Of a DNA stretch of 64,000 nucleotides, positions 60,584 through 61,851 are shown one piece after another. The notes under the pieces are model-generated. The model was not told where the DNA came from, did no database searches, and saw only the letters and a list, made by a program, of their open reading frames with translations. The stretch is from contig WRHM01000006.1 in the NCBI GenBank assembly GCA_009783265.1, forward strand, positions 61,232 through 125,231, read 5' to 3'. The position numbers and the translations under genes were made by a program. Origin of the DNA: Oscillospiraceae bacterium. GTDB lineage: Bacteria > Bacillota > Clostridia > Oscillospirales > WRJC01. Position 1 is the first letter of the stretch, and each line of letters starts with the position of its first letter.

Positions 60584-60659
60584 TGGGATGTCGCCAAGTC
60601 GGTAAGGCACAGGACTTTGACTCCTGCATGCGCTGGTTCGAGTCCAGCCATCCCAGCCA
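60584..60659 (+). tRNA. tRNA-Gln (anticodon TTG)
   Basis: TGGGATG..CATCCCAGCCA, anticodon arm CAGGA-CTTTGAC-TCCTG, GGTTCGAGTCC, 76 nt with CCA. Confidence 0.97.
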
Positions 60660-60726
60660 TGAAAACTCCCATTCTATCATAGATTCGGGAGTTTTGCATT
60701 TCTTGACAATACCCCAAAAACACCGC

Positions 60727-60749
60727 TTGCTAATAAATTTGCTAATAAA
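60727..60749. repeat. Tandem 11-mer, integrase arm-type-site-like
   Basis: TTGCTAATAAA at 60727-60737 and 60739-60749. Confidence 0.55.
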
Positions 60750-60772
60750 CTTATTTTTTGCTTGAATAAATC

Positions 60773-60883
60773 TTATGCTTTTCTGACGGCGTTTTGTATG
60801 CCGTCGAGCATATTTATTTTACGCGATGCTTCTATGCGCGCGTATATATTCATCGTCGTGTCTATATCGCCGTGACTCAGGAA
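60773..60883 (-). pseudogene. Tyrosine integrase C-terminal remnant
   Basis: Own translation FLSHGDIDTTMNIYARIEASRKINMLDGIQNAVRKA*, matching the LGHxxxxTTxxY box II; in-frame stop immediately upstream. Confidence 0.75.
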
Positions 60884-61121
60884 TCATTGTGTTCATATTC
60901 GCTTGAATAGACGACGCTTCCATAGTTTCACGACTCATATAAATCGGCTTAACAGTAAGCCGTACAGTTTCATTCTGCGGCAATCGTTTACGAAGCAATG
61001 CCCGTAGTGTCACCAGAAACGAGCTGTCGGGTGCACCTAAAGAGTTTATGTTTGAAAATAATCTGTCAGCCGCTTCCGATGTTAATGTTGTTGAAAATGA
61101 CAGGATACTTTTATTGAACAT
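60819..61121 (-). pseudogene. N-terminal fragment of an element-borne protein, 3'-deleted
   Basis: Strong RBS GGAAGGAGG; the last ~20 codons are an out-of-frame read of the integrase remnant. Confidence 0.6.
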
Positions 61122-61192
61122 GGCTCAATCCCTCCTTCCCGATAATATTACAGGGCAGCGTATATATTTACGCCGCCCCGTTAAGCCGCCGT

Positions 61193-61423
61193 TCATTTCG
61201 CGTTATCCGCCTTAATTACGTTTAAAAGATAGCATTTTTCGGTAATTCCAAAATCCGCGAAAGTCCTCTCTAAATCGCCGGGTTCAAGGGTTGAACCGTC
61301 GAGGTTCATCATCCCGATGGTATAATCTATTCCCGCATTTTCCAACGCTTCGCGCAGCGTCGTGTTTTCGTCCAAAATCTCGCTGGACCGCTTGACATTA
61401 TTTCCGATTGTTACTTTTATCAT
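61193..61423 (-). CDS. Ubiquitin-like (beta-grasp) protein, 76 aa
   Basis: GGGAGG RBS; MIKVTI..ENTTLREALE..LDGSTLEPGDLERTFADFGI..CYLLNVIK parallels the ubiquitin pattern. Confidence 0.7.
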   Translation of the reverse strand: MIKVTIGNNVKRSSEILDENTTLREALENAGIDYTIGMMNLDGSTLEPGDLERTFADFGITEKCYLLNVIKADNAK

Positions 61424-61515
61424 TGACTTTTTCCTCCCGTTATGGTAAAATTATTTTGTTAAAACAGTTGAGGAGACCGCACGCACGCGGTTCCCTCAGT
61501 TGGTTGATTATCAGC

Positions 61516-61617
61516 CTATATGCTGACGATGATTTTTTCGGCGATTGCGTCGCGGTCGGCTTTGATTTCGTCCAACGCAGCGGCGATGCCTTTTTCGATT
61601 TTTCCGAGATTAACCAA
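61516..61617 (-). pseudogene. C-terminal remnant of the upstream element gene
   Basis: Own translation LVNLGKIEKGIAAALDEIKADRDAIAEKIIVSI*, no RBS. Confidence 0.55.
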
Positions 61618-61851
61618 TCGGGGATATTTGTCGCAATAGGCGTTGCAGGGAGCAGCGAACTGGCACGAAAAATGGGAGTTGAAATCAACGGAAATACGAT
61701 CGTCGTTGACAGTCGAATGGCAACCAACATACCCGGACTTTATGCCGTCGGGGACTGTACGGGCGGTATGCTCCAGATTGCGAAATCGGTTTATCAGGGA
61801 GCTGTCGCAGGCACGGAAGTAATTAAGTATATCAAAAAAATTTCAAAGTAA
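61618..61851 (+). pseudogene. C-terminal fragment of a thioredoxin-reductase-like oxidoreductase
   Basis: GIFVAIG..TNIPGLYAVGDCTGG..QIAKSVYQGAVAG; N-terminal FAD/NADPH regions missing. Confidence 0.8.

Follow-up and report, generated by a model that had tools for sequence, protein, structure and literature searches.

An orphan ubiquitin-like gene in a prophage relic of an Oscillospiraceae genome: probable member of a phage-borne family with an Asn-Ala tail

Why should a bacterial chromosome carry an intact gene for a ubiquitin-like protein (Ubl) that lacks the terminal glycine and stands among truncated genes? The question is raised by a stretch of 64,000 nucleotides from an Oscillospiraceae bacterium (assembly GCA_009783265.1, contig WRHM01000006.1, positions 61,232 to 125,231), which is called the window below and to whose own numbering all window coordinates refer. 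On its minus strand, at 61193..61423, the window encodes an open reading frame (ORF) of 76 residues with a beta-grasp fold and the end K-A-D-N-A-K. The initial annotation described it as an intact ORF with a strong ribosome-binding site and an end, KADNAK, devoid of a terminal Gly. This description holds: the frame starts with ATG, the ribosome-binding site GGGAGG (61433..61438, minus strand, from sequence reading) lies 9 nt upstream, and K-A-D-N-A-K is read directly from the ORF. We conclude that the gene probably belongs to a phage-borne Ubl family, that this copy was stranded in the deletion relic of a temperate phage integrated at tRNA-Gln, and that intact elements probably encode a pathway of processing, activating enzyme (E1) and candidate conjugating enzyme (E2).

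The ORF is far beyond a chance reading frame, since 793 homologs of similar length were found and a scan of 1.84 billion representatives (clusters at 50% identity) gave 460 clusters with E ≤ 1e-3, and 121 with E ≤ 1e-10. The best 120 homologs are 81–100% identical, and the named ones among them are all called 'hypothetical protein'; several metagenomic homologs are 92–96% identical to the window protein. Neither the Ubl nor two proteins that recur beside it, a protein of 129 residues (p129) and a large protein of about 480 residues, have a match in PHROGs, NCBIfam or PADLOC. Pfam covers the Ubl family with sub-threshold matches only, which recurrently fall into beta-grasp families: among 71 members these were DUF2604 (15 of 71, best E 0.0019), TUG-UBL1 (4), SAMP2 (3), ThiS (2, best E 0.026) and ubiquitin (1, E 0.021), and also YukD. 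GenBank phages contain one unannotated record with 48% identity to the Ubl, and GenBank plasmids gave no match. A full-text literature search found no paper describing the family, though supplementary tables of the Bil and Bub papers could list related operons; nor is it described in the accessible parts of PMC1779556, PMC10557695, PMC11601596, PMC11601603 and 10.1101/2023.09.04.556158. We regard the Ubl as a genuine member of a large, unannotated, phage-borne ubiquitin-like family.

The fold was modelled on a natural in-frame Ubl-p129 fusion of 206 residues, the Ubl part of which is 79% identical to that of the window, with an alignment of 90 sequences. The model has a predicted local distance difference test score (pLDDT) of 96.3 and a predicted template-modelling score (pTM) of 0.75, and its residues 1–72 follow ubiquitin's order beta-beta-alpha-beta-beta-(3-10)-beta. 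Foldseek matched it with probability 1.0 to SUMO, ubiquitin, ISG15, archaeal ubiquitin and the bacterial Ubl 8tyx_A (E 1e-3 to 1e-2, root-mean-square deviation of about 3 Å over 70–77 columns). The ubiquitin-like pattern first noticed in the sequence is therefore accompanied by a predicted beta-grasp with ubiquitin-fold relatives, and not by some other fold.

For the analysis of the tail the best 150 representatives were aligned; nine fragments could not be placed, leaving 141. Asn74 is present in 124 and Ala75 in 128 of these, and the pair N-A (positions 74–75) in 120, so that the conserved tail reads K-x-D-N-A. The conserved C-terminus proposed at the outset is thus seen, and 68 of the 141 stop exactly at this Ala. 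The others continue beyond Ala75 with 1–5 residues of no fixed kind (29), with 6–40 residues (7) or with more than 40 (37). Two of these 37 long forms, P0148 and P0177, lack the tail motif and are probably unrelated or frameshifted; in P0177 (2,282 residues) eight short matches cover Ubl residues 34–58 only, again without the motif, and this protein is probably an unrelated repeat. Among the close homologs (n = 120) Asn74 and Ala75 are each found in 119; 19 of them end at Ala75 and 93 carry 1–5 extra residues, among them a lone extra Ala in 47 and a lone extra Lys, like the window copy, in 3. A few members have G-G, G-A, N-G or A-G in the columns of the N-A pair, which links this pair with the di-glycine of classical Ubls. 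In 4 of the 141 representatives position 75 is Gly, and in 7 of them position 74 is.

The tail is followed by a stop, by ragged residues, by another Ubl or by a p129 domain, much as in the precursors of ubiquitin. In five loci the Ubl and p129 are fused in frame, with p129 starting directly after ..D-N-A-(A). Tandem p129-Ubl units also exist, and the array in locus L033 reads p129, Ubl-p129, Ubl-p129, Ubl. Two di-Ubl proteins, P0125 (154 residues) and P0199 (156 residues), are arranged head to tail with a linker of 0–4 residues after the conserved tail; by analogy, they may represent a bacterial or phage counterpart of polyubiquitin. The earlier idea that the terminal Lys is trimmed to expose ..D-N-A fits both the conserved N-A tail and the frequent natural end at Ala. 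Judged from the aligned tails, Ala75 is favoured as the reactive end, because natural ends are never shorter, none of the members stops at Asn74, and Ala75 is replaced only by small residues. Cleavage after Asn74 is possible since BilA of E. aridi is cut one residue short of its end, at Gly97|Ala98, according to the available text of PMC10557695. Asn74 would then be the reactive residue after loss of Ala75, which we consider less likely.

Which genes accompany an undamaged copy? From 33 related loci, L021 and L022 were dropped as partial matches (about 30 residues at 55% identity), and 31 with a full-length Ubl remained. The gene order is p129, Ubl, the protein of about 480 residues, a JAMM protein of 250–350 residues and a ThiF protein of 223–227 residues. 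The three downstream genes are present in 25 of the 27 loci with at least 3.6 kb of downstream sequence (all but L002 and L012), and p129 in 28 of the 30 with upstream sequence. The proposal that intact elements continue with a large protein, a JAB peptidase and a ThiF protein was accordingly correct. Compared with the proteins of L010, identities are 57–84% for the Ubl, 53–87% for the E1, 38–70% for the JAB protein, 32–66% for p129 and 25–48% for the large protein. Hence, the Ubl and the E1 appear to be tightly held while the large protein evolves fast. A reverse transcriptase follows the E1 gene in 19 of the 24 loci with at least 6.5 kb downstream (e.g. L004:8088-9227 and L015:15219-16352). 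It is retron-like (PADLOC RT_II-A, 2e-47; NCBIfam retron St85 family, 2e-52, below the cut-off). One metagenome-assembled genome holds two Ubl copies outside the usual operon (L011:2878-3105 and L012:3744-4456). One is located between a reverse transcriptase fragment and an ORF of 250 residues; the other has p129 beside it, followed by nicotinamidase-like and further accessory genes, and neither E1 nor JAB appears within 10 kb.

The protein of 223–227 residues consists of a single ThiF domain (PF00899, 89.7 bits at a cut-off of 28.1, E 2.1e-25) with G26-C-G-x-x-G31, D113 and C180 as invariants. The closest solved relatives of its profile are the protein-modifier E1s UBA5 (3e-16), Uba1 and UBA6, and behind them follow MoeB (7e-13), MccB (4.5e-11), ThiF (1.3e-9) and Cap2; the profile was aligned to solved E1s over positions 8–124 only, and C180 lies beyond the aligned part. 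By these sequence features, the 223-residue protein is a ThiF-type E1. In the JAB protein E69, H129, H131, S139 and D142 are invariant in 18 sequences, giving the motif E...HxH-x7-S-x2-D, and the profile matches Rpn11 with this motif aligned (E 0.012). When two copies were tested with the PADLOC JAB models, the L010 protein matched at 6.7e-6 and the L004 protein gave no match; Pfam Prok-JAB reached 15–16 bits at a cut-off of 25. Going by its motif, the protein of 250–350 residues is a JAMM peptidase.

A complex was predicted for the E1 of L003 and the window Ubl trimmed to residues 1–75. It reached an ipSAE of 0.77 compared with 0.01 for the best of three controls; the mark applied to such scores is reached by 116 of 157 solved complexes and by 2 of 215 mismatched pairs. 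The runs share at least 97% of contacts, and the partner has a pLDDT of at least 92. Residues 65, 67 and 69–75 of the Ubl contact residues 26 and 28–31 of the E1, which form the nucleotide loop, 110–115 around D113, and 137–145. The predicted complex supports binding of the Ubl by the E1, with the tail placed in the nucleotide loop.

The model of the large protein (pLDDT 88.2) contains an N-terminal alpha/beta domain, a helix of 55 residues and a C-terminal alpha/beta domain. In the VIA-align list all rows other than coiled coils are RWD domains, aligned with residues 286–442 or 286–468, and these are weak matches. The language-model neighbours of residues 286–490 are viral proteins, and 17 of 30 hits fall into the Prok-E2_D set (score 0.91). 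After the fourth strand of the C-terminal domain there is a nearly invariant P-N-x7-C-[ILVM]-G, the Cys of which is invariant. The lone Prok-E2_D protein fetched has N-x7-C-I-G, and hhalign aligned only the N-x7-C-[IL]-G stretch, with a probability of 1%; of 401 genomes searched in the phylum, a single one has Prok-E2_D (PF14460). Foldseek gave nothing at E ≤ 1e-3 for the large protein, a profile search of the PDB only coiled-coil noise, and a Pfam search with 15 C-terminal domains no E2 family at E ≤ 10. We therefore treat the large protein as an E2 candidate whose chance of being one is roughly even. In the partner p129 a single Lys, K27, is nearly invariant, and none of the Cys, Ser and Thr positions is invariant. 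No usable protein-atlas match was obtained for it, and a profile search of the PDB gave nothing below E 0.079; p129 may be an enzyme, a substrate or a cofactor.

That the pathway is phage-encoded had also been suspected, and at least one carrier, G003, is a complete tailed phage by its terminal repeats and PHROGs genes. This genome (114,344 bp, rated complete) has direct terminal repeats and holds locus L032. For virion and lysis it encodes terminase, a portal whose gene is interrupted by a homing endonuclease, a tape measure of 3,231 residues, Dit, tail proteins and endolysin, and for replication DNA polymerase, primase, helicase and ligases. It also carries three integrase-like genes and a diversity-generating retroelement (reverse transcriptase plus Avd). 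The HK97 capsid family PF05065 had no match in five viral records. The operon lies at about 6.8–10.6 kb on the strand of the replication genes, beside genes for NAD salvage and RNA repair. The NAD-salvage set consists of NMN adenylyltransferase, PnuC, NAD synthetase and a NAMPT-like protein; an RNA ligase, a Thg1-like tRNA-His guanylyltransferase and a Ro60/vWA-like protein are also encoded. A Ubl of the lambda tail-assembly type was considered for the operon of G003 and rejected, since the operon is about 60 kb away from the tail genes. The neighbours of the operon fit host takeover or counter-defence and a prophage-encoded defence alike.

The computations cover the fold, the conservation of the tail, the genes around the Ubl, the motifs of the JAMM and E1 proteins and a predicted E1-Ubl interface; cleavage site, thioester relay, E2 role, target and biological role are inferred. 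First, p129 and Ubl would be produced in excess, some of it as Ubl-p129 or Ubl-Ubl precursors. Abundance of both is suggested because terminator-like stem-loops follow the two genes, ahead of the enzyme genes. Second, the JAMM peptidase would cleave after ..K-x-D-N-A and remove anything beyond. Third, the E1 of 223 residues would bind the beta-grasp, thread the tail into its nucleotide loop and adenylate the terminal carboxylate, most likely that of Ala75. Fourth, the activated Ubl would pass to the invariant Cys in the UBC/RWD-like C-terminal domain of the large protein. The variable N-terminal part of the latter may select the target, with p129 as candidate substrate or cofactor. A bolder version, to which we give somewhat less than an even chance, is that large temperate phages of gut Clostridia carry a complete ubiquitin-style cascade of their own, which acts through an Asn-Ala tail and with which the phage rather than the host tags p129 or host proteins for takeover or counter-defence. 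Its parts would be poly-Ubl and fusion precursors, the JAMM peptidase for their processing, the minimal E1 and, as ligase, a giant E2-like protein, a list that we hold just as tentatively.

Several points weigh against the proposed pathway. Glycine is obligatory in all characterised conjugated Ubls, as stated in the accessible parts of 10.1101/2023.09.04.556158 and PMC10557695, and the Ubl tail is without it. Conjugation, thioester formation, adenylation and cleavage are deduced from genes and models. The Ubl that was folded is a homolog with 79% identity and not the window protein itself. The good score of the predicted complex may stem from its likeness to solved E1-Ubl complexes; moreover, the pair is not strictly cognate, the own Ubl of L003 being 88% identical to that of the window, and the alignments were built by us. 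Many of the loci are near-duplicates, so that the neighbourhood counts overstate independence, and in L002 and L012 p129 and Ubl occur without the enzymes within 9–10 kb.

Could the same genes serve a different chemistry? MccB acts on a C-terminal Asn, and Asn74 is as conserved as Ala75. The set of Ubl, ThiF and JAB could hence perform carrier or C-terminal chemistry, either as a sulfur carrier of the ThiS/MoaD/CysO type or by an MccB-like adenylation of Asn74. A minimal E1 with a single ThiF domain resembles sulfur-carrier enzymes, the top NCBIfam match of the E1 is ThiS adenylyltransferase (3e-22, below the cut-off), and the solved structures related to its profile include MoeB, ThiF and MccB. 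Trimming of sulfur-carrier tails by JAB proteins is described for such clusters in the available part of PMC1779556. However, library scans of the conserved block showed no rhodanese, cysteine desulfurase or cofactor-biosynthesis gene, the operon is located in a phage accessory region, and the best solved matches of the E1 profile, UBA5 and Uba1, are protein-modifier E1s. In 17 of 141 representatives another residue (G, Q, C, E, A or I) replaces Asn74, and Asn-specific chemistry would not allow this; the lack of any member ending at Asn74 speaks in the same direction. Furthermore, the three genes are always accompanied by the conserved large protein, whose UBC/RWD-like domain contains an invariant Cys. 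We consider carrier chemistry unlikely.

Very unlikely, in our judgement, is that the Ubl is only a cleavable folding or assembly domain for p129, comparable to the ubiquitin fused to ribosomal proteins, with the JAB protein as maturation protease, no transfer at all, and the E1 and large protein serving otherwise. The strict pairing of Ubl and p129 (28 of 30 loci), their co-amplification in L019, L020 and L033 and their fusion in the five loci mentioned and in about one quarter of the representatives would agree with such a role, as would the terminator-like hairpins behind both genes, which suggest abundant products. But the 68 of 141 representatives that end at Ala75 are free-standing, so that most need no release from p129; the usual order is p129 then Ubl and not the reverse; and next to the Ubl there is a conserved adenylating E1 whose active site, in the predicted complex, receives the tail. 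We therefore retain the pathway of processing, activation and transfer as the preferred reading of the intact loci.

What, then, happened to the copy in the window? It lies in a deletion relic of about 0.96 kb, the remains of an integrated element between tRNA-Gln and a 5'-truncated trxB-like gene. The tRNA-Gln (anticodon ttg; 60584..60659, plus strand, found by ARAGORN) marks the integration site at the relic edge. It is followed on the minus strand by a 3' stub of a tyrosine integrase (60773..60877, from six-frame translation), comprising the last 34 codons and the stop. Next is a 5' fragment of the large gene (60884..61121, minus strand, by alignment and profile) with about 79 codons and its own ribosome-binding site and ATG, the open frame of which continues out of register into the integrase stub, up to 60819. 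It aligns with the N-terminal 79 or so residues of 15 full-length proteins of about 480 residues; the profile of the large protein matches it at positions 1–80 of 485 with E 6.7e-20, a value from a profile that includes the fragment itself. On the other side of the Ubl gene lies the 3' stub of the 129-residue p129 gene (61516..61617, minus strand), the last 33 codons and stop of which align with the C-termini of 18 p129 proteins. The two co-oriented truncated genes that had been seen beside the Ubl are thus identified by alignment to full-length proteins.

The host-side border is the 5'-truncated thioredoxin-reductase-like fragment (61603..61851, plus strand), which matches Pfam Pyr_redox_2 with E 1.7e-14 at profile positions 224–291 of 291 only. 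It retains only its last 80 or so codons and sits 5' of a CoA-disulfide-reductase-like fusion gene (61878 onward). The deletion that formed the relic took host sequence too. The relic DNA resembles the intact locus L005 (70.5% over 637 nt, window 60979–61602). A binning or scaffolding artefact is ruled out, because Logan contigs from two sequencing runs bridge both junctions with zero differences (646 nt over 60791–61436, 341 nt over 61407–61747 and 1778 nt from 61414); both runs may be source samples of this genome. In a same-genus genome the same tRNA-Gln is followed by a full integrase of 421 residues (L047:2962-4528), and this tRNA is consequently a recurrent integration site. Window positions 60613–60880 also have 71% DNA identity to an integrase 3' end with a tRNA-like stretch on another contig of that genome (G007, L048:1235-2347). 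The relic was absent from all 31 related genomes compared; 28 of them match parts of a 3-kb query, in most cases its tRNA or the reductase gene downstream.

A second, independent truncation is found at L002:5046-7924, where p129, the Ubl and the first 88 or so codons of the large gene remain. This relic is 98.4% identical to L003 over 1,520 nt and is followed by a serine-recombinase-like ORF of 427 residues and host-like genes. The same large gene was thus cut at codon 88 or so in L002 and at codon 79 or so in the window, which may reflect a recombination hot spot or coincidence.

Both flanking hairpins that had been proposed exist, one of them with a reservation. The GC-rich stem-loop that separates the large gene from the Ubl gene (61150..61181, minus strand) lies in a spacer of 71 nt with a minimum free energy (MFE) of -28.9 kcal/mol (z -3.5; 1 of 200 shuffles equally good). 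The other stem-loop (61469..61498, minus strand), which is followed by a U-rich stretch, separates the p129 stub from the Ubl gene. Its spacer of 92 nt has an MFE of -19.2 (z -0.87; 33 of 200 shuffles equally good), and taken by itself this hairpin is not significant. In the intact loci L004, L009 and L010, GC-rich stem-loops occur in both matching spacers (z -1.5 to -5.4), most of them followed by U-runs, and the counterparts of the second hairpin are stronger in L004 (z -3.8) and L009 (z -3.0).

The initial annotation had called the Ubl gene the sole intact survivor of its operon. The ORF is indeed intact amid stubs, but this reflects the position of two deletion endpoints rather than proven functional retention. 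Neither stub beside the ORF contains stop codons or frameshifts, and hence the deletions look recent. The genome, 91% complete in 17 contigs, has one Ubl copy. E1 and JAB genes, already noted as invisible in the window, had no match in profile searches of the whole 91%-complete genome either, and the profile of the large protein matched only the stub of about 80 residues. Since E1, JAB and a full-length large protein are missing there, the window copy is an orphan, and it is probably inert. A sigma-70-like promoter was not found upstream of the Ubl on the minus strand; a scan of the region gave 5 sites where 3.4 ± 2.1 are expected, none of them placed for the Ubl. Nor was the gene found in the two same-genus genomes searched (87% and 90% complete). 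That this copy was domesticated and kept for a host function is highly improbable: its intact ORF, start codon and ribosome-binding site amid truncated surroundings and its 92–96% identity to metagenomic homologs would suit retention, but 231 nt easily outlast two deletions, the undecayed stubs speak for a recent deletion rather than selective retention, and the missing promoter, missing partners, absence from both same-genus genomes and independent truncation in L002 all argue against it. On the best reading, the gene survived by chance and points to the system without serving the host. In annotation, lone Ubl copies like that of the window should accordingly be taken for prophage debris and not for host ubiquitin systems.

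If the bolder version is true, the cascade would mirror the Bil defence on the side of the virus, and the rule of the obligatory glycine would have an exception in nature. Should the Ubl be conjugated, the chemistry of E1 and JAMM enzymes would be wider than thought, a compact E1 of 223 residues would be at hand for study and for tagging tools, and the question would arise what a phage gains from protein tagging.

How does the system compare with those already described? To our knowledge, descriptions of prokaryotic Ubl conjugation (CBASS Cap2, Bil, Bub) have up to now concerned host defence and a dependence on C-terminal Gly, or on Gly or Ala for Cap2 substrates. Bil has the order Ubl-E2-JAB-E1, according to the available text of PMC10557695, and this is matched here only if the large protein is an E2. 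BilA has an invariant reactive Gly, whereas Asn-Ala is found here; the Bil E1 is a large IAD-AAD-CYS protein in contrast to a single ThiF domain of 223–227 residues; and the Bil E2 is a small CEHH/UBC protein, while the candidate here is the C-terminal domain of a protein of about 480 residues. Moreover, Bil has neither a p129 partner nor Ubl-partner fusions and serves as chromosomal anti-phage defence, whereas the present system is carried by phages.

In type I Bub (6E.1/DUF6527), as set out in the accessible part of PMC11601596, BubAB is cut after Gly229 by the JAMM peptidase of the operon, and BubB, residues 230–362, is an E2 of about 133 residues. An N-terminal Ubl fused to a partner of about 130 residues is the same layout as in the Ubl-p129 fusions. 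However, Bub has an E2 as the fused partner and oxyester chemistry, combines its peptidase with the E1 in one protein and includes a DUF6527 serine protease. In the present loci no Cys, Ser or Thr of p129 is invariant, separate genes encode the JAB protein and the E1, and the tail does not end in Gly.

The PRTRC systems share a small ThiF-type E1 on mobile elements, and TIGR03736 (PRTRC_ThiF) gave weak matches of 1.3e-8 and 1.2e-6. Prok-E2_D on the language-model neighbours of the C-terminal domain is a further likeness, and a Prok-E2_D protein from a Bacillota genome matches PRTRC_B at 9.8e-10. The PRTRC_ThiF scores, however, are 34.5 and 28 bits at a cut-off of 144.75, the Ubl, the JAB protein and the large protein match no PRTRC model, and no ParB-like gene was seen in the conserved block.

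In phages lambda and T1, TAPI (a Ubl) and TAPK (JAB plus NlpC/P60) form a beta-grasp protein beside a JAB peptidase that is predicted to release it, as far as the available text of PMC1779556 describes them. That pair belongs to a tail module, has no E1 and ends in Gly, whereas the operon described here lies among early and accessory genes and always with an E1. The sulfur carriers ThiS and MoaD have Gly-Gly and a sulfur-transfer partner; here the tail is N-A, and no sulfurtransferase was seen in the conserved block.

Eukaryotic ubiquitin is made as head-to-tail polyubiquitin and as fusion precursors, with extra residues after the tail. Ubl-Ubl and Ubl-cargo fusions and one to a few residues past the tail are likewise present in this family. 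It differs by N-A in place of G-G, by a JAMM peptidase that is encoded next door and by lying outside the Pfam ubiquitin family. The interpretation given in the initial annotation thus holds for the most part, and the system is a distinct variant among the prokaryotic combinations of Ubl, E1, E2 and JAB: it is phage-borne, its tail is Asn-Ala, its Ubl also occurs in precursor fusions, its E1 is minimal, and p129 is added as a partner.

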